The position numbers and the translations under genes are program-made. Below the pieces are notes generated by a model, which saw only the letters and a program-made list of their open reading frames with translations, made no database searches and was not told the DNA's origin. 64,000 nt of DNA from Pristiophorus japonicus (taxonomy: Eukaryota). Below are positions 43,335-64,000 of the stretch, one piece after another (positions within the stretch are counted from its first letter, which is position 1; each line of letters begins with the position of its first letter). The stretch spans positions 85,002,001 to 85,066,000 of the forward strand of contig NC_091987.1 of NCBI RefSeq assembly GCF_044704955.1, in the 5' to 3' direction.

Positions 43335-46300
43335 AGACCCAAGGTTGCAAGCCATCAGGTCCAGGGGACTTTTCCATCTTTAGTCCCATTATTTTATTGA
43401 GCCTTTTTTTTGTGATAGTGATTGCTTTAAGTTCCTCCCTCGCTTTCGCCCCTTGATTATCTATTATTGGGATGTTTTTAGTGTCTTCTACCGTAAAGAC
43501 TGATAAAATTATTTGTTCAAAGTCTCTACCATTTCCCTGTTCCCCATTATTAATTCCCCAGTCTCATCCTCTAAAGGACCAACGTTTAATTTAGCCACCC
43601 TATCCTTATTAGAAGCTCATACTATCTTTTTTATATTACTTGCTAGTTTACTCTCATAATCTATCTTCCCTCTCTATTATTTCTTTAGTCATCATTTGCT
43701 GTTTTTTTAAAAATTTGCCAATGCTCCGGCCTCCCACTGATCTTGGCCACTTTGTATGACATTGTTTTCAAATTGATACCATTCTTTACTTCCTTCGTTA
43801 GCCACGGAATGTTCTCCCTTCGCTTAAAGTTTTTCCTTCTCACTGAAATATATTTTTGTTGAGTTATGAAATATCTCCTTTATTGTCTGTCACTGCTTCT
43901 CAACTGTCTTACACTTTAATCTATCTTCCCAGTCGACTTAAGCCAACTTTTTTTTTATACGTTCACGAGATGTGGGCTTCGCTGACAAGGCTAGTATTTA
44001 TTGCCCATCCCTAATTGCCCTTGAGAAGATGGTGGTAAGCCACCTTCATGAACTGCTGCAGTCCGTGTGGTGATGGTAGTGCCACAGTGCTGTTAGGGAG
44101 GGAGTTCCAGGAATTTGACCGCGCGACGATGAAGGAATGGCGATATGCTTTCAAGTCAGGATGGTGTGTGACTTGGAGGGGAACGTGGAGGTGGTGGTGT
44201 TCCCATGCGCTTGCTGCCCTTGTCCTTCTCGATGTTAGAGGTCGCGGGTTTGGGAGGTGCTGCCGAAGAAGCCTTGGCGAGTTGCTGCAGTGCATCATGT
44301 AGATAGTACACAATGCAGCCACGGTACGCCGGTGGTGGAGGGAGTGGGTGTTTAAGGTGGTGGATGGGGTGCCAATCGAGCGGGCTGCTTTGTCCTGGAT
44401 GGTGTCGAGCTTCTTAAGTGTTGTTGGAGCTTCACTCATCCAGGCAAGTGGAGAGTATTCCATCACACTCCTGGCTTGTGTCTTGTAGATGATGGAAAGG
44501 CTTTGGGGAGTCAGGAGATGACACACTTGCCACAGAATACCCAGCCTCTGACCTGCTCTTGTTGCCACAGTATTTATGTGGCTGGTCCAGTTAAGTTTCT
44601 GGTCAATGGTGACCCCCAGGATGTTGATGGTAGGGGATTTGGCGATGGTAATGCCATTGAATGTTAAGGGGCAGTGGTTAGACTCTCACTTGTTGAAGAT
44701 AGTCATTGTCAGGCACTCGTGTGGCACGAATGTTACTTGTCACTTATCAGCCCAAGTCTGAATGTTGTCCAGGTCTTGCTGCAAGCGGGCATGGACTGCT
44801 CCATTATCTGAGGAGTTTCGAATGGAATTGAATACTGTGCAGTCATCAGCGAACATCCCCACTTCTGCTTTCATACCTTTGTAGTTGCATTTATTTAGAA
44901 TCAGGGCACTGGTTTGAGGTCTGACTTTCTCACCCTCCAACTGAATTTGAAATTCAACCATGTTATGATCACTTTTTCCTAGAGGATCCTTTACTATGAG
45001 ATAATTTATTAATCTTGTCTCATTACACAGTACCAGATCTAAGATAGCCTGCTCCCTGATTGGTTTCTTCAACTTACTCTTCAAGGAAACCATCCCGGAT
45101 ACACTCTTATAAACTCTTCCTCAAGTCTACCTTGGCCAACTTGATTTGTCTAATCAATATGAAGATTAAAGTCGCCCATGATTATTACCGTACCTTTCTT
45201 ACAAGCCTCCATTATTTCTTGATCTATACTCCGTCCAACAGTGTCGCTACTGTTAGGGGGCCTATGGACTACGCCCACCAGTGACTTCTTCCCCTTATTA
45301 TTTCTTATCTCCACTCAAACTGATTCTACATCTTGATCTTCTGAGCCAATATCATTTCTCACTACTACACTGATCTCATCCTTTATTAACAGAACTACCT
45401 CACCTTTTCCTTTCTGTCTATCCTTCTGAATTGTTAAATACCCCTGAATATTCAGTTCCCAGCCTTGGTCACCTTGCAACCACATTTCTGTAATGGCTAT
45501 CAGATCATACCCATTTATATCTATTTCTGCCGTCAACTCATCTATCTTGTTACGAATGTTATGTGCATTCAGATAAAGAGCTTTTAATTTTGTCTTTTTA
45601 AAATTTTTTCCTGCTTTAACCCTACTTTCTGTTATACTCTTATTTTATACATTCTGTCCCTTCCTGTCACAGTCTGGTTATCATTTCCCCCACCGCTACC
45701 CTGCTCTATTGCCTTCTCCTTGCTCTTTGCCTTTTTAAATTTCCGCTCACCTGAACCCTTTCCACCCCCAGTACTGGTGCCAGTGCCCCATGAACCGAAA
45801 CCCATTTCTCCCACACCAGACTTTGTGCCACATGTCCATCTCTCTGATCTTATTTACGCTGTGCAAATTTGCTCGTGGCTCGGGTAGTAATCCAGAGATT
45901 ATTGCCTTTGTGGTTCTGCTTTTTAATTTAGCCCCTAGCTGCTCAAAATCCCTCAGCAGAACCTCTTTCTTTGTTCTGTCTATGTCATTGGTCCCTACAT
46001 GAACCACGACAACTGGATCTTCCCCATCCCACTCCACGTTCCTCTTCAGCCCGGAGGAGATGTCCTTAACCTTGGCACCGGACAGGCAACACAGCCTTCG
46101 GGACTCTCGCTCTCGGCTGCAGAGAACAGTATCTATCCCCCTAACTGTACTCTTTCCTACCACTACAACATTTATTTTTACTCCCCCCATTGAATGGCCT
46201 CCTGTACCATGGCGCTGTGGTCAGTTTGCTCACCCTCCCTGCAGTCCCCGCCCTCGTCCAAACAGGGAGCAAGATTCTCGTGCCTGTTGGACAATTTTAA

Positions 46301-53155: not shown

Positions 53156-55850
53156 TGCTAGTTACAGAGGAGATTAACAAAATAGTAAGGAAGGACATTA
53201 GCTTGGATGATGTGGAATCTGTATGGGTTGAGCTGCAGAACACCAAAGGGCAGAAAACGCTAGTGGGAGTTGTGCACTGACCACCAAACAGTAGTAGTGA
53301 GGTTGGGGTTGGCATCACACAGGAAATTAGGGATGCATGCAATAAAGGTAGAGCAGTTATCATGGGTGACTTTAATTCACATATAGATTGGGTTAACCAA
53401 ACTGGTAGCAATACAGTGGAGGACGATTTCCTGGAGTGTAGAAGGGATGGTTTTATAGACCAATATGTCGAGGAATCAACTCGAGAGCTGGCCTTCCTAG
53501 ACTGGGTGTTGTGTAATGTGAGAGGATTAATTAGCAATCTTGTTGTGCGAGGCCCCTTTGCGAAGAGTGACCATAATATGGCAGAATTCTTCATTAAGAT
53601 GGAGTGTGACACAGTTAATTCAGAGACTAGGGTCCTGAACTTAAAGAAAGGTAACTTCGATGGTATGAGATGTGAATTGGTTAGGATAGACTCGCGAATG
53701 ATACTTAAAGGGTTGACGGTGGATAGGCAATGGCAGACATTTAAAGATCACATGGATGAACTTCAACAATTGTACATCCCTGTCTGGCGTAAAAATAAAA
53801 CGGGGAAGTTGGCTCAACCGTGGCGAACGAGGGAAATTAGGGGATAGTGTTAAATCCAAGCAAGAGGCATATAAATTGGCCAGAAAAAGCAGCAAACCTG
53901 AAGACTGGGAGAAATTTTGAATTCAGCAGAGGACAAAGGGTTTAATTAGGAGGGGGGAAATAGAGTATGAGAGGAAGCTTGCCGGGAACATAAAAACTGA
54001 CTGCAAAAGCTTCCATAGATATGTAAAGAGAAAAAGATTAGCAAAGACAAAAGTAGTCCCTTGCAGTCAGAATCAGGTGAATTTATAATGGGGAACAAAT
54101 AAATGGCAGACCAATTGAACAAATACTTTGGTTCTGTCTAAACTAAGGAAGACACAAATAACCTTCCGGAAATACTAGGGGACCGAGGGTCTAGCGAGAA
54201 GGGGGAACTGAAGGAAATCCTTATTGGTCAGGAAATTGTGTTCGGGAAATTGATGGGATTGAAGGACGATAAATCCCCAGGGCCTGATAGTCTGCATCAC
54301 AGAATACTTAAGGAAGTGGCCCTAGAAATAGGATGCATTGGTGGTCATTTTCCGACATTCTATAGACTCTGGATCAGTTCCTATGGATTGGAGGGTAATT
54401 AATGTAAAACCACTTTTTTTAAAAATGAGGGAGTGAGAAAACAGGGAATGATAGACCGGTTAGCCTGACATCGATAGTGGGGAAAATGTTGGAATCAATT
54501 ATTAAAGATGTAATAGCAGCGGCTTTGGAAAGCAGTGAATGGCTCGGTCCAAGTCGGCATGGATTTATGAAAGGGAAATCATGCTTGACAAATCTTCTAA
54601 AAAATTTTGAGGATGTAACTAGTAGAGTGGACAAGGGAGAACCAGTGGATGTGGTGTATTTGGACATTCAAAAGGCTTTTGACAAGGTCCCACACGAGAT
54701 TAGTGTACAAAATTAAAGCACTTCTATTGGGGGTAATGTATTGACATGGATAGAGAACTGGTTGGCAGACTGGAGGCAAAGATTAGGAATAAACGGGTTT
54801 TTTTCAGAATGGCAGGCAGTGACTAGTGGGGTACCGTAAGTTTCAGTGCTGGGACCCCAGCTATTAACAATATACATGAATGATTTAGACGAAGGAATTG
54901 AATGTAATATCTCCAAGTTTACAGACGACACCAAGCTGGGTGGCAGTGTGAGCTGTGAGGACGATGCTCAGAGGCTGCAGGGTGACTTGGACAAATTAAG
55001 TGAGTGGGCAAATTGCATGGCAGATGCAGTATAATGTAGATAAATGTGAGGTTATCCACTTTGGTGACAAAAACAGGAAGGCAGAATATTATCTGAATGG
55101 TGACAGATTAGGAAAAGGGGAGGTGCAGCGAGACCTGGGTGTCATGGTACATCAGTCATTGAAAGTTGGTCTGCAGGTACAGCAGGCGGTGAAAACGGAA
55201 AATGGCATGTTGGCCTTCATAGCGAGAGGAGTTGAGCACAGGAGCAGGGAGGGCTTACTGCAGTTGTACAGGGCCTTGGTGAGGCCACACCTTGAATATT
55301 GTGTACAGTTTTGATTTCCTAATCTGAGGAAAGACATTCTTGCTATTGAGGGAGTGCAGCGAAGGTTCACCAGACTGATTCCCGGGATGGCAGGATTGAC
55401 ATATGAAGAAAGACTGTATCGACTCGGCTTATATTCACTGGAATTTAGAAGAATGAGAGGGGAGCTCATCGAAACATATAAAATTCTGACAGGATTGGAC
55501 AGGTTAGATGTAGGAAGAATGTTCCCGATGTTGTTGAAGTCCAGAACCAGGGGTCACAGTCTAAGGAGAAGGGGTAAGCCATTTAGGACCGAGATGAGAA
55601 GAAACTTCTTCACTCAGAGAATTGTGAACCTGTGGAATTCTCTACCAGAGAAAGTTGTAAAGGCCAGTTCGTTCGATATATTCAAAAGGGAGTTCGATGT
55701 GACCCTTCCAGCTAAAGGGATCAAGGGGTATGGAGAGAAAGCAGGAATGGGGTACTGAAGATGCATGATCAGCCATGATCATATTGAATGGTGGTGCAGG
55801 CTCGAAGGGCCAAATGGACGACTACTGCACCTTTTTTCTATGTTTCTATG
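53156..55850 (+). mobile_element. CR1 ORF2 (EN-RT-tail) inserted into the 3' UTR of the second LINE family
   Basis: GDFNSHIDW and RT motifs; tail; host LINE reads GGCCAGC|ATTTATTGCCC across the insert. Confidence 0.93.
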
Positions 55851-56462
55851 TATTTATTGCCCATCCATAATTGCCCTTGAGAAGATGGTGGGGAGCCACC
55901 TTCTTGAACCGCTGCAGTCCGTGTGGTGATGGTACTCCCACAGTACTGTTAGGAAGGGAGTTCCAGGATTTTGACTCAGCGGCAATGAAGGAACGGCGAT
56001 ATGCTTCCAAATCAGGATGGTGTGTGACTTGGAGGGGAACATGGAGGTGGTGGTGTTCCCATGTGCCTGCAGACCTTGTCCTTCAAGGTGGTAGAGGTCG
56101 TGGGTTTAGGATGTGCTGACGAAGAAGCCTTGGCGTGTTGCTGCAGTACATCTTGTACATGGTAAACACTACACCACGGTACGTCGATGATGGAGGGAGT
56201 GAATGTTTAAGGTGTTCGATGGAGTGCCAATAAAGTGGCCTGCTTTGTCCTGGATGGCATCGAGCTTCTTGTGTTGTCGCAGTTGCACTCATCCAGGCAA
56301 GTGGAGAGTATTCCATCACACTCCTGACTTGTGCCTTGTAGATGGTGGAAAGGCTTTGAGGAGTCAGGAGGTGAGACAGTGGCCGTAGAATACCCAGTCT
56401 CTGACCTGCTCTTGTTGCCACAGTATTTATGTGGCTGGTCCAGTTAAGTTTCTGGTCAATGG
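55851..56462 (-). mobile_element. Second LINE family 3' fragment (tail at 53107-53155), host of the LTR element
   Basis: Homologous to 43950-44612; breaks at TCAATGG where the LTR starts. Confidence 0.88.
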
Positions 56463-58459
56463 TGTAAGGGGTGGTTTGCAGGGGGTCAGCTTTCCCTTCT
56501 GACCTTATATGAGCGGTTCCGAATCGCTCCCACACCCTTGGTTCTAGACACTGGAATTATGAAGGGACGGTGACAGACTTGGACAGACAATCGGTTTCAA
56601 GGTCGGAAGCAGGTATGGCCTTATTGTGTTTAAAAAGAAGTAAAAGGCACACCTTTAATAACACACACAGACCAATACACACTGAAGGGTACAACACATT
56701 GAATAAATTGTCCAATTACAGTCTGGGGAAAAGAATACAGCTTAAACTCTAAATGGGGTAAAGAGGCGAATGCAGATACAGTTACAAAGTTATCCCAGCC
56801 TCCCCCCTCTGCTCCCAATTCCCCATACTAACTAAGTTATAGCTCTCAGGGTTCAGGGGCCATGCTCACCAATCCCCTTTTAGACAGTTGCCAGTGAATC
56901 GCGGTTTCGGGGATCGCTGCACTTGGCCTTCTAGGCGAGCCGTACCCCGGTCGGAGGAGAGGACTTCAGACTGCATAGTCTTTGGTTGGGGTGCTAAGTT
57001 GCGTTTTGGATGTATGGGGTAAATACCCACTTTCTTTGGTTAGGAATAGTTTTAGTTAGTCCTTTTTGGTAATTTCTCACCCGTTGGTCGTTCCGAAGTA
57101 GATTGTAGAGTGGAAATAAATGTCGATTCTTTGGTTTTTGCTGAGTTGGTTTCGGTTGGTCGTTTTGCTGGTTGTGGTGGCCCGGGTTGTCAATTTGGTT
57201 GCTGACAACCTTCCATTTCGTGGGCCTCATGCTCAGTCAGTTCTTGATGAGTTCTAGTAGTTTCCTTCACTGCTCCATTTCTTCACTCCCCAGCTCCAGC
57301 TGCTTGTGTCTGTGTCTGTGTTCTAGTCTGTGTGCTGCTCCTTGCTGGTCTTTTCTTGTAAAAAAACTGGGGGATAGATATATTCCAAAAAAAAGGTTCC
57401 GTTATCTCCCATCAAATCTCTTGGGCTCTGTTTAAACTGTACTGTCCACTGATTTTCAAATGTCTCCTTTGTCAGCAGTAACTTGATTAGGGTGTGAGAA
57501 TGTGCTATCACTGGTTTTGCATTGTTTTAGAATTGTCCAGTTTCTTGACCATGATTTCCATTGTGCTTGATTGGGTAATTCGATTATCTCTTAGCGGGTG
57601 AATAGTTCCCCCAGACAGTCTGGGGCCTTTAATACACGAATTTGCTTCAGACGTTGGCTCCACCTCCTGTATTTGGTAACTCTTTTTCGCAGCCAAAATG
57701 TTGTAGAATCTTAAAATTGATATGCTCCTTCCCATAGATGTTTAGGGGATCTCAAGCTTCTGTCATTTAGGTCCATTTTGAATTCCCTTTCCTATGAGTC
57801 CAAACACTGGGGGGTGGGGGGGGGGTCTCCATGAATGCATCCCCTTTTACCCCCGTAGCTTCGTCTGCCCCTTTAAACTCATTTTAAAAGTCCAGAAAGG
57901 GATTCTTCTCCCCTGTAGAGGAAAGGTACCTGGAATCTTTGCGAGATATTGGTAAATTCTACATTCCCCCCGTGATACTATATCACTTATGGTATCATTC
58001 TTCGAGGTGAGCAAAGTTCCTGACTCCCAAGAGATAACCTTCCCCATAAATTAGCTAAACTAATACCCAAAATGCATTACACTTATGCAACATCACCATA
58101 GATGTACACTTTTCCCTTTACAGGTACAAACTTTTTACATTTATACCCTCCCAGCTTGGAGGGGGTTCAATCACTACAATTGCATTTCAGCACAGTTACA
58201 TTTCATTTCAGTTACATTATATTCACCAGCATATAGGCAACGTACAACCACATTACAGAAGGAAAAAAAACCTAGATTAAAATTAAACAACATCAATTGG
58301 TCTCCTGGTAATGTCTGGATCCTGCCCTTGAGAACTGCTCTCAGGCTGGCTGACACACAAGACAAACTCAAAATAATCACCTAAACATTACTGCAATATT
58401 ACCCTCAATTCTAAACTAAACCTTAAAATATCCTTAAACTAAAATTAGAGCTATGTACA
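56463..58459 (-). mobile_element. 3' LTR (~2.0 kb) of the retrovirus-like element
   Basis: Minus strand begins TGTACA right after the purine-rich GGAGACGGGTGGCGGT and ends ...CCTTACA at the host LINE junction; the 5' LTR lies outside the window so the boundary is unconfirmed. Confidence 0.7.
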
Positions 58460-58486
58460 ACCGCCACCCGTCTCCAGGTGGACTGG

Positions 58487-61400
58487 TTAGTCCCTGTCAG
58501 GCCCATGCCTTGTGCGGCCTGATAGCCGCCTGGATGCTAGGGTTTCCCTGCAGCCGGTGAGCTGGAGACCCTTGTGTCTGGGACAGCTCGTTGCTAGTGC
58601 TCCTGTGAGACCCTCACCGCTGGAGGCGGCTGGCTGGTGGTCCCTACTCTGAGCGGCCTCTGTACTTCTGACCTTCGGCCTTTCCTGTCGGGCTGCCCTT
58701 CTCCTAGGGTAGAATCGCTGAGGCTCAGATGCCGGTGACCACGGTATCTTTGGCCGTGGTGTACGGAGGGTCCTTCTCAGGGCTTGGGTTACTGGGGGTG
58801 CGTCCAAATCCCAAACGATGGGTGGGATAGCCCCTCCAGTACTGCAATTCACCGCCCCTATAGGCACGGTTTCTGAGCCTGCCTCATTCCCTGTGGGCCC
58901 TCCACCGTCGGTGGCGGCCAACGGAGGGTCCCTGTCCTGAGGACGGTTCACCCCTCCCGGCTGCCCTCTGTGCTTGGCTGACCCTGGGTTGTACAGCTTG
59001 CACTGGTTGATGTGGAACCACTTAGTACGGCGGGGCAGCTTTATGGCATAGACCATCGGGCATTATATATGGCCCCATATATAATGCTTCAAAAACCCCG
59101 ACCCGAGCATAGTTCCTCACCATGACCTGGTCCCCTATCTCCCATTCGTGGTGTTTGCTGGGTTCTAGCAGCAATCGGTTCCCCTGATGCTGTCTGCCCA
59201 TGTTACTAGCAGCCTGCCAGTGAATCTGTTTGAGGTGTTCAAACAGGTTCCTGACAAACCGGTCCCGGTTCACCTCTCTGAGCTGACCTTCTGTGAGCAC
59301 CGGGGCTAGGACATGGGTGGGGGTCCGCATGATCCGGCCAGTCATGAGCTCGTATGGGGAATACCCGGTGCTCTTTGGCTAGCTCCGATCCCCATTAGGA
59401 CCAATGGTAAGACCTCCACCCACTTTTGGGGTGAGTCTCCCGTTTCCTTCCGCAGCCTTTCTTTAATGGTGCGGTTTAAACGCTCCACAATACCCGATGA
59501 CTGTGGATTGTGGGCAACGTGCCATTTCCCCTCAATGCCGAGCATCTTAAGGGTTGCCTGCATTACCTGCCCGGTGAAATGGCTCCCCTGGTCCGACTCC
59601 ACATACTGTGGGAGTCCCCACCGGGAGAACACTTCCCTCACTAGAATCTTAGCTGTCCCTAGTGCGGTGGCTGTTCGGCAGGGGAAGGCTTCAACCCATT
59701 TTGAGAACACGTCCACCAGGACAAGGCAGTATTTGTAGCCTCCCTGGGCGGTGGGTAGGGGCCCGATGTAGTCAATTTGGATTGACTGCCATGGTCCCTC
59801 TACCCTCCTGACATGTCCTAGGGACACCTTCCTTTTCTGGGGGTCAGGGTTGTTCGCAGCACACACCAGGCAGTTCGCACAGAACTCGCGGACGTCCTCC
59901 CTGAGTCCTGGCCACCATCCTGCCTGTTCCACCCGTTGCCAGGTGGTCTCAGGCCCGGGGTGTCCCGCTCCTGGACCCTCATGGGCCAGTTTTAGGAATT
60001 CCCTCTGGTGCTGCTGTGGCACGACCCATTGTCCCTCTTTAAACAGCATGCCTTCCTTAACGGTAATGGCTGCTGTGCCGTACGGACCTTCTACTCTCTC
60101 TCCTCTAGCTAGCACATTCAAGACAGCTTTCAGGACTGGGTCCTGTAGCTGAACTGTATTTAAGTCCGGGGCCAAAGCTGTCCCTGTACTCTCTGCTGCC
60201 CTGTTCTTATTCTTGACTGCTGCTATGCGGCCGGTGTCATAGGGGTCCCAGAACTTTCCCATGCGGGCACCTTCTTTGGCCAGTTTGTCAGCCTGTTGGT
60301 TTCCCTCTGCACGGGGTTCGGTTTTTGAATGGGCCTTCACCTTATGTATGTAGACCTTTCCTTCTTCCTCCACCGCTGTCATGATTTTCTCCAGCAGGGG
60401 CTTGATTGCCAGGGGTCTCCCGTCAGCGGACGTGTATCCGCGACGGGACCAGATAGCCAGGTACTCCGTACATGAATTGCAGGTGAACATACTGTCCGAG
60501 CAAATCGTGTACAGGGTAGGGAATTCCTCGGGGTGGGTCACCACGTACATTACGGCGGACAGTTCAGCATGCTGGGCGCTCATGGTGCTGGGGAGCTTGA
60601 TTGCCAGGGCAATACCTGCCCTTGGGTCATAGACACCGCACCCAGTGAGTCGCTCGCCAGCAGATACCGTGCTGGACCCGTCCACGTAGATGTCCCGGCC
60701 TGTAGGGTGTAACCCCGCCCGAAGGCCAATGTTTACCTCCCATACTCTTTCTATGGAGCACCTGTGGGCTTTCCCTGGATAGATTAGGTTGGCTGCGAGC
60801 CTTGGCTCGCGGGGGCCTTCTACGCTGAGGTCCATCTGGGAGAGGAGCAGGGTCCAGCGAGCAATGCGGGCACTGCTCACCGTCCCGTCCTTAATCCTCC
60901 CATCTAGGAGCATCTGAGTAGGTGTGTGGTGGGTTAGGAGTGTTAGAGGAGACCCTCCCGTGAAGATCAAGGATCTTTTCACTGCCCAATGTGTGGCTAG
61001 GAGGTGTCTCTCGCAGTTGGAGTACCCCTTCTCCACATCTGTGAGGATCCTGGAGGAGTAAACCACCGGTCTCAGCTGGCCGTGCCGCTCTTGAAGCAGC
61101 ACTGAGCTCAAACTGTCCCCGCTGGCTGCCACCTCCAGGAAAAACTCCTTTCCTACATCTATCGCTCCCAAGGCTGGCGCGGTCTGCAAGTCCTTCTTGA
61201 GCTGATTAAATGCTGCCTCGCAAACCTCATCCCAGTCCCACTCTACACTCTTGTGTAGGAGCCTGAGCAGAGGGGCTGCGGTGGCTGCATAATCCTCAAT
61301 GAAGTCTCTGCAGTCCCCGGTGAGCCCTAGAAAGGATCTTACCCCTGTCACTGTGTTGGGGGCTGGTAACTCCTATACTGCCTCCCTTCTAGCCTTGTCT

Positions 61401-62644
61401 ATGGCCCTTTCCCCAGCGCGCACAGTCAGACCCAGGAATTTGACTTCCTTCTGGCTGATCTGTGCCTTCTTGGGGTTTACTTTAAACCCTTCTTCTTTTA
61501 GCAGCTCCAGCAGCTCAGCCAGCAGTGGGCCATGCTCCTCCCCCTGATCGGTGAACAGGAGCAGGTCATCCACATACTGCACCAACTGCTGGGGTTTGCT
61601 AAAGCCCTTTAAACAGTTCGCCATGCATTGGTGAAAAATGCTGGGACTATTGTGGAAGCCTTGGGGAAGACAGTTCCACGTGTATTGTTGGCCCTTAAAG
61701 GTAAAGGCGAACTTGTACTGGTCCTCCCGTTTTAAAGGAATGGACCAGAACCCATTTGAAATGTCCAGCACTGTGAAAGTGGTCGCAGATGCTGGAATAC
61801 TCCCTATGAGATACGCTATGGCTGCTACAGTGGGTGCACAGGCAGGGATATTCTTATTTAGTACTCGATAGTCCACGGTGGCCCTCCATGAGTTGTCCGG
61901 TTTCTTAACTGGCCAAAGTGGAGAGTTTACATGGGTTGCTATCGGTCTTAACAACCCTTGCTCTACCAGTGATCCCAGCGCCGTTGTCAGGTCTGCCTCT
62001 GTCTCCCTGAAGAAGTTATATTGCTTTTGTGGTCGGGTCATGGGGTCCCCTACTATACTAACTTCCACCCCCGTTACCCTACCACAGTCATGTTTGTGGG
62101 TGGCAAATGCTGCAAGGTGTGCCCGTACATATGCCTGGTACTCCACTGGGGTGTTACTGACCAGTAATTCCAAGTCGTAACCCTCCTTTGGCTTCACGGT
62201 ACACAATGTTCCCTTGGCCCCTTTTTCTGGGATCACCGCCACCTCACCTTCCCTGTCAGTCACTATGGCTCCCCATAGACAGTGGTTCCTGTGATCCACT
62301 AGGATCTGGTGGCCAATGATAAAATCAGCTCCCAGGATCCCTTTTCCCTTTTGCTCCCATTTCATCAGGACACACTTCCATTTGGTTTTGAGTGTCCCTA
62401 ACTGAATGGTGAGCGGGATGGAAAACTAACCAGTTTGCTCATTACCTGTGAACCCCACTAGACTGTACGGGACCCTGTTCGATAGAGGTGAGGTAGCTGG
62501 GTTATCTTCATATACAAGGGTGCTGGAAGCACCAGTATCTAGCAGGTAGGTCCCTTTCACTTTCTCCACCTTCATCGTAACGCACGGTCTCTTCCAGGCA
62601 TCGTACTCTAGGGAACACAGATACACAGGCTGCACTGGCCTTAG
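58487..62644 (-). pseudogene. pol: pol of a retrovirus-like LTR element: PR-RT-tether-RNase H-IN; two in-frame stops (62426, 61373) and frameshifts (~59375, ~59060)
   Basis: LLDTGAS; LPQGFHNSP, YVDD; IYVDGS..SAQHAEL..SDS..KVKAH..GNQQAD; HHCC, QIDYIGP, SDQGSHF, VERLN; GPY motif. Confidence 0.93.
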
Positions 62645-64000
62645 TCATGCATCTGGGTGGGTTGGAGCAGAGGGTTTTACCGTACCGGCTATTGGACCGG
62701 TTGCGATAGCTACTGCTCCCTGTCCGTTTATGAGTGTCTGTAGGGCGGCTACGAGTGTCTCATATGTGTCGGGTGTTCCTGCCCCGGCCTTACGGGCTGG
62801 GGCTGGAGTGGCCTTTCCCTTAGTCTCTTTCCAGGGGTTCCTACAATCCTTCCTCCAGTGCCCACTTTTCCCACACCCAAAACACTCGCCCCCTTTGTGG
62901 GGAGGGTTTCCACCTTCCTGATGCCACTCTCTCTTTCCTTGGCTGGGTTTAATCTCATGGACCCTCCCTTTAGAGGAGGGCTCCTCTGTCCCTCTACTGT
63001 TCCGGTAAGCCAGTGTCAACTGCCTGACCACTGTCTCCTCGGTAGTTCTGGGATCTCTTGGATCGAACCAGACCTCGGCTTTTGCCTTTACTCCAGGTAG
63101 GCTGTTTGCCACCAGGCTGCGGAGCCAGTGAGCCAGCTCGTTAGGGTTCAGGTGGGCCCGGTCAAGAACCTCACTACAGGCCCTTTCGTAGACCGGCCAC
63201 AACCTGTCGGCGAAAGCCTGTGGAGTCTCCCCATCGAGCTGCACTGTCTTCTCCACTCGGGAGAAAGGACTCCCGTCGTTCATACCCATGGCCTCTAGAA
63301 CCTCCTCCTTAACCGTAGCGTACGTGTTTTGCCCCTTTCTGCTGTCTGCAGAGAGGGAATGGCACAGCTTGGTGTCTAGTGAGAAGAGCAACAGCTTAGC
63401 CTGCTCCGAATCATCGCACCCGTTAATATCCCCTGTTTGTTCCACTTCCAGGAAGTGTACCGAGGGATCCCCCTGTTGGGTGAGCTTACTTAGGTGGCCT
63501 ATCATAGCCCTCAGTTTTTGGGTGTCGTGGGGGACTACGAAGTTGCTTTCTAGGGGTCCTGCTGCCCCATTGGCATCAGGCGGGCCAAACTTCTGCTGCC
63601 GGACCTGGTTCCGGCCCTCCTTGTATTGGCTCGCCCTCTTCCCCCTGCTGCCAAGCCGAGTTAAAACTCGGGGCTGCCGGTGTTGGTAGTTTGCAATCCT
63701 TGCCTGCCCCGCACTCTGGCTGACACCCCTGCTGCCCCGGGCCATTCCTGGGAGCTGCAGGCGGTGACAGAGGGGTTTCTCCTTGCCCAACCAGGTGTTC
63801 CTGGGCTAAACCCGGGTTTATCAGACACACCATGCCTTTAGCCCGGGATAGAGCAAGGTTCAAGCTTTGGACCTGCTGCTGCCAGGGGCCGTGGTCTCCT
63901 GCTTCAAATTCCCTGGTACTGGCTACCTGAAAGGCTACCTGAATGTCTCTCACCCTCTCCCCGTACTCTTTAACTTGCTTGGCGAGGCAGGAATTCTCTT
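62645..64000 (-). pseudogene. gag: gag (5' end outside window) with one CCHC zinc knuckle; frameshift near 63590
   Basis: CFGCGKSGHWRKDC; QLDGETPQAFADRL resembling the major homology region; directly upstream of protease. Confidence 0.88.

Follow-up and report, generated by a model that had tools for sequence, protein, structure and literature searches.

We identified, in a stretch of 64,000 nucleotides of the Pristiophorus japonicus genome (NC_091987.1; hereafter the window), an endogenous retroviral element whose gag and pol genes lie in one minus-strand frame with a UGA between them, and readthrough of this UGA is the best explanation for the synthesis of Gag-Pol, a reading to which we give a probability of roughly 85% on the basis of sequence comparisons. 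Most ribosomes would stop at the UGA and release Gag, and a few per cent of them would insert a residue at this codon and produce Gag-Pol. The inserted residue would be Arg, Cys, or Trp, as is usual in UGA readthrough. The signal would be the primary sequence UGA-CUAG, a type II readthrough context preceded here by GCA, and a 3′ pseudoknot may be unnecessary.

Re-reading of the minus strand at the junction gave GAT GCA TGA CTA AGG CCA GTG with the stop at 62647-62645, matching the initial annotation, which had described gag and pol in one frame with a single UGA between them and CTA next. This frame runs through gag, the TGA, 72 codons, a TAG at 62428-62426, 350 codons, a second TAG at 61375-61373, and 676 codons. 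Counting both strands of the window, only 18 of 2330 TGA triplets (0.8%) have CTA directly after them, and four have CTAG, so the TGA-CTA context at the end of gag is unlikely to be due to chance alone. The context spans 62641 to 62650 (minus strand) and reads GCA UGA CUA followed by A in this copy and by G in most other copies, so that this copy, with UGA-CUAA instead of UGA-CUAG, shows the minority state. No slippery heptamer was found from -150 to +120 around the UGA. Past the stop, pol continues in the frame of gag, and the remaining two frames stay open for no more than about 20 and 50 codons. Upstream of the catalytic Asp of the protease there is a single in-frame AUG, codon 24; it falls within the protease domain, whose Pfam match begins at residue 17. 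The initial annotation had also suggested folding the downstream sequence for a stem or pseudoknot; no stable 3′ stem emerged (z +0.2 to +1.6), a weak negative in a decayed copy and with a fold that misses pseudoknots, since a gamma-type control junction scored only -0.7 to +1.0.

The domains encoded on either side of the UGA, all on the minus strand, are a CCHC knuckle upstream and protease, reverse transcriptase (RT), tether, RNase H, and integrase downstream in Pfam searches. The 5′ part of gag (63576 to 64000, from the list of open reading frames) is open at the window edge and resembles by eye the middle of the Gag relatives P0051 and P0052; the 5′ end of the element lies beyond base 64000. 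The 3′ part of gag (62648 to 63600) encodes a region resembling capsid and a single zinc knuckle of the CCHC type (62887-62840), which scored 18 bits (zf-CCHC, E 0.003) against a cut-off of 20.8, the relatives scoring 20.4, 21.7, and 32.1. The first 72 codons of pol (62429 to 62644) encode the N-terminal half of the protease with the motif LLDTGA (Asp at 62539-62537), recognized by Pfam RVP at residues 17-68 (E 2e-4, 21.9 bits) and by alignment with snakehead retrovirus (SnRV). The remainder of the protease and an RT with the motif YVDD occupy 61376 to 62425, with a Pfam RVT_1 match at 61909-61421 (E 1.8e-37), and the tether (a degenerate RNase H), RNase H, and the integrase zinc finger and core occupy 59345 to 61372, where RT_RNaseH(_2), RNase_H, Integrase_H2C2, and rve each scored over the cut-off. 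The C-terminal part of the integrase is distributed over two further frames (58487 to 59378) and matches by eye the end of P0045.

This locus is a dead copy carrying two premature UAGs and three frameshifts. The UAG within the protease (62426 to 62428) is private to this copy or to a small minority, and the frame is open at this place in relative P0044; at the second UAG, after the RT (61373 to 61375), both P0044 and P0046 are open. The frameshifts, which the initial annotation did not contain, lie in gag near 63600 and at the end of the integrase near 59380 and 59065. Downstream of pol, the region from 56465 to 58486 (minus strand) is non-coding, with no env found in it, and host repeats start below about 56465. 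In this one copy, six-frame searches of 56500-58486 for env or accessory reading frames gave no Pfam match, the longest frames having at most 106 aa, and a tblastn search of the 3′ region with 306 aa of SnRV env gave nothing under E 1; the element is probably env-less. The roughly 2 kb after pol may form a long 3′ LTR or be what erosion has left of an accessory region. They contain two purine runs, near 57970 and 56810, and by eye the purine run followed by TG at 57971-57962 may mark the start of the 3′ LTR. Neither an LTR pair nor a second copy of the element was found within the 64,000 nucleotides. The element is flanked by LINE repeats; at least 12 degraded CR1-like LINE fragments lie in positions 1-56460, and repeats of another type occupy 43994-44611 and 55850-56464.

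To judge from its sister copies, the UGA is a family-wide feature and not a post-insertion lesion. Contigs from four of ten sequencing runs (X1, X4, X5, and X6) were aligned to positions 62300-62860; the four runs represent three samples, three studies, and two organism labels, X1 and X4 sharing one sample that is possibly the source of the window. From a single run, 1675 contigs fell on 561 bases, which fits a multi-copy family and is not a copy number. Among the differences listed for the four runs, none gives an alternative letter at 62642-62650, which includes the candidate readthrough site itself (62645 to 62647, minus strand). At position 62641, the other letter makes up 88% of depth in X1, 86% in X4, and 100% in both X5 and X6, which yields UGA-CUAG. 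The X5 contig (organism B, 598 bases) has 14 differences, all among those listed, and therefore reads GCA TGA CTA G, as does the single long contig that alone covers the junction in X6. Consensus copies with a sense codon at the UGA, which the initial annotation had set against its own reading, did not appear among the differences listed for these runs. Its view of the stop at 62428-62426 as a post-insertion nonsense mutation was borne out, other copies differing there in 94%, 99.7%, 100%, and 100% of depth in the four runs.

Beyond the sister copies, termination of Gag at this place is conserved in more distant relatives. The Gag relatives P0051 (55% identity) and P0052, P0106, and P0107 (45-47%), the last three encoded on three contigs (5-36 kb), all terminate where the alignment places the UGA; they were compared as proteins, in which the codon is not visible. 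A pattern scan yielded a viral locus, L005, with the junction UAG GGC, which we take to be SnRV on account of this junction, an RT matching the published SnRV row, and a fitting length. UAGGGC is the context given for SnRV in a 2026 review (PMC13517186). Both SnRV and this element have eight residues from the stop to the motif LCSL, followed by RP.V and DTGA, and because this spacing and these motifs align, the UAG of SnRV and the UGA described here sit at the same place. In SnRV, LCSL is encoded by an equally pyrimidine-rich run.

Named shark relatives were found in Heptranchias perlo (82%), Rhincodon typus (65%), and Scyliorhinus torazame (Gag, 30%). An intact Pol family (P0046, P0109, and P0112; 40% identity) on metagenome contigs of 6-7 kb is the nearest outside relative. 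Other searches gave little: no fused Gag-Pol of this family was present among 43 matches to a long-protein search, which is weak evidence; a word-index search with Gag had no matches; a protein atlas matched only in generic gag and RT clusters; and a metagenome scan returned four distant loci. In searches for DNA of closer relatives, viral contigs gave only knuckle matches or chance matches (5/5 chance), and prokaryote genomes gave none.

Three other explanations of the junction were weighed. That the UGA is a nonsense mutation, or a product of CpG decay, of a sense codon in a single gag-pol reading frame might be suspected in a copy with two more nonsense codons and three frameshifts. The sense state does exist in other lineages: at the corresponding junction of the Loki-Pfl consensus, the codon preceding CUA encodes arginine. 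Furthermore, every listed difference reaches about 40% of depth in some run and 42 further ones probably fall below that; under about 40% of depth, some copies may therefore carry a different letter at the UGA. Against this, TGA is the majority state in all four runs, compared with a 94-100% difference at the private stop, and diverged Gag proteins and SnRV stop at the same place. At two CpG sites, 62699 and 62726, the C is kept in 56-86% of depth in X1 and X4 and altered in just 14-44%; because nearby CpGs are mostly intact and yet no sense share is listed at the UGA, origin from CGA by CpG decay is unlikely. We regard the lesion as largely refuted and very improbable. Other forms of recoding, whether ribosomal frameshifting near the stop, hopping, or reinitiation shortly downstream, would accord with the finding of no stimulatory structure at the junction, but there is no slippery heptamer, pol lies in the gag frame, the alternative frames soon close, and UGA-CUAG works without structure in reporters (PMC4132726); such recoding is likewise hardly to be expected.

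Pol could also be made separately from Gag, as in foamy viruses, through splicing or through initiation at an internal AUG, with the shared frame being incidental. The best PDB matches of RT and integrase are indeed foamy structures, in a database without SnRV, and an AU test does not reject a grouping with foamy viruses (p 0.10). At 62621-62608 there is a pyrimidine-rich stretch that ends in AG, codon 24 is an in-frame AUG, and a splice joint would be invisible in DNA contigs. However, this AUG falls inside the protease domain, and the pyrimidine run encodes LCSL, a motif whose codons are likewise pyrimidine-rich in SnRV. Foamy-labelled loci never have a CCHC gag in frame before pol, whereas this element has one, and separate expression leaves the kept leaky context unexplained. 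We consider it unlikely. The hexanucleotide UGACUA at an in-frame stop is what defines type II readthrough, for which a 3′ structure is conditional (PMC13517186). In a study in HEK-293T cells, UGA-CUA alone gave 1.5% readthrough and genes with UGA-CUAG up to about 31%, with only 12 downstream bases needed; the same source traces conservation of the AQP4 readthrough extension back to cartilaginous fishes and gives GCA as the codon mostly found before the stop in OPRL1 (PMC4132726).

The element is best filed, from comparisons of its proteins, as a multi-copy SnRV-like endogenous retrovirus (ERV) of class III in clade Huo (a clade defined in PMC8922424). The best named match of the protease-RT region is SnRV (38.6% over 332 aa, E 1.6e-68), and the RT core scored 188 bits with SnRV, 151 with an ERV-L-like sequence, 148 with the retrovirus-like element L001, at most 146 with foamy, 132 with epsilon, and 120 with gamma sequences. 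For the RNase H-integrase region, L001 is the closer match (309 bits, against 124 and 123 bits for the two pieces that align with SnRV), and Gag is barely alignable with SnRV Gag. Between RT and integrase lie a tether and a further RNase H of the active type, an arrangement of the Retroviridae and not of Ty3/gypsy elements, and in the Pol tree the family separates from four gypsy rows at 100/99. In the trees, which contain one SnRV and one ERV-L row on long branches, the family branches near the base together with P0046, SnRV, and ERV-L, in an order that the trees leave open. The RT tree had 44 rows after 15 of 59, mostly near-duplicates, were dropped beforehand; it placed the root within the query group, and rooting was not based on it. 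A second tree had 24 chosen rows, with P0044 as an unbroken family member. The labels gamma, epsilon, delta, foamy, and ERV-L are our presumptive assignments from motifs and genome sizes.

In AU tests, a clade with SnRV was not rejected (p 0.29), nor was one with foamy viruses (p 0.10), whereas a clade with the gamma, epsilon, and delta rows was rejected (p 0.0096), and with it a class I (gamma/epsilon) identity. A foamy-like identity was dropped: the CCHC knuckle and the shared gag-pol frame exclude foamy organisation, and foamy-labelled loci differ in both. A lokiretroviral identity is probably to be set aside as well: in a motif search of the published supplement, the tree having no Loki rows, 0 of 5 RT-region motifs occurred in Loki rows, and the matches fell only in SnRV rows (3/3). 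SnRV-like ERVs are known from the elephant shark (CmiERV lineage I; PMC4422223).

Like this element, SnRV combines a CCHC gag with YVDD, a dual RNase H, and a stop that is in frame and at the corresponding position. The two differ in the stop context (UAG-GGC in SnRV, UGA-CUA(G) here), in the env and accessory reading frames that SnRV has 3′ of pol and that were not found in the one copy here, and in 3′ structure (z -2.5 at 100 nt in SnRV vs +0.2 to +1.6). Gamma- and epsilonretroviruses as a rule separate gag from pol by a stop in the same frame. In MLV and WDSV, as here, a single such stop lies after the knuckle and before the DTG motif of the protease; MLV needs a pseudoknot. All 12 viral loci examined that have a CCHC gag in frame before pol use UAG. 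The retroviral contexts given in the available part of the 2026 review are UAG ones and only three with UGA, namely UGAAGA, UGACGA, and UGAAGU (SSSV, ZFERV, and RMEV); the same part describes readthrough outside gammaretroviruses as unverified and its signals as unclear (PMC13517186).

In XtERV-S, gag and pol are in frame with a TGA between them, for which the authors propose translational suppression (PMC8278194); its pol is ERV-L-like and its env class I, XtERV-S2 reads TGA CAG in place of TGA CTA, and the likeness to this element is by description and not by alignment. A bird-type ERV-L-like locus (L003:1804-1812) has a gag ending in GCA TGA CAG, like XtERV-S, with pol in another frame in this copy, which may reflect an indel at what was once a readthrough junction or else a site of frameshifting. 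At the gag-pol junctions of L001:2915-2923 and L002:2467-2475, we observed UAG CAA UUA, the type I (TMV) motif, in an intact, env-less-looking element with a 601-codon gag frame, an 1180-codon pol, and a dual RNase H; the 2026 review states that this motif is absent from animal viruses (PMC13517186).

The motif itself recurs in published sequences. By eye, a defective bullfrog class III provirus reads TGA CTA G at the junction (published supplement), and TGA CTA G is in frame with the protease in 4 of 24 lokiretrovirus consensus sequences (PMC7947760 supplement; four of 17 text matches, a count that misses line-broken matches and 18 of 318 pages). These four, Loki-Ofa, -Cne, -Pyo, and -Sau, carry UGA-CUAG-G, and the annotation of their Pol begins at a leucine further on. 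In Loki-Cne, GCA precedes and GC follows, which is the OPRL1 context; in Loki-Pfl the stop is replaced, by eye, by the arginine codon mentioned above, and 10 of the 24 consensus sequences are printed as fused polyproteins. Lokiretroviruses share the dual RNase H with this element but differ in the surroundings of the protease and have a fusion-glycoprotein-like env, none being found here. In the available part of the Loki paper, its survey found them in none of three Orectolobiformes genomes and there is no report from cartilaginous fishes; in a word search of its main text, 'stop' and 'readthrough' were absent (PMC7947760).

We found no report of a UGA-CUA gag-pol junction in a retrovirus in the literature, a search whose scope did not extend to Repbase, Dfam, and subscription papers; the parts available of PMC5210030, PMC5512871, PMC9040795, PMC12440569, PMC4977317, PMC12193657, PMC10435555, and PMC8672886 contained nothing on the junction. 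Readthrough is a strategy already known in retroviruses and hence not a new mechanism here; it is the type II signal for which we found no report in them. The initial annotation had proposed that Gag-Pol is made by UGA readthrough and that this is diagnostic of the lineage: the former remains the favoured reading, and the latter does not hold, since UGA is present in SSSV, ZFERV, RMEV, and XtERV-S, and UGA-CUAG, by eye, in four lokiretrovirus consensus sequences and one frog provirus.

The same UGA-CUA(G) signal seems to recur in several deep retroviral lineages. We tentatively suggest, as an idea somewhat less probable than its opposite, that UGA-CUA(G) with little structure is an overlooked, recurring route to Gag-Pol in the deepest lineages, namely shark SnRV-like elements, frog class III ERVs, and the lokiretroviruses of teleosts, that the codon alternates between opal and arginine as it does in alphaviruses, and that retroviral readthrough is perhaps older than the UAG-pseudoknot type of gamma- and epsilonretroviruses. 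If readthrough occurs at the junction described here, the gag stop of such elements would be functional and the annotated start of Pol should not be moved to a later codon, and the junction would offer a short testable cassette for how non-gamma retroviruses set the ratio of Gag to Gag-Pol. The hexa- or heptanucleotide is the one present at the alphavirus nsP3/nsP4 opal codon and in OPRL1, OPRK1, AQP4, and MAPK10, with GCA before the stop in OPRL1 as in this element; here it stands at a retroviral gag-pol junction, where it would constitute a third kind of retroviral readthrough signal, borrowed from or convergent with the UGA-CUAG genes of the host.
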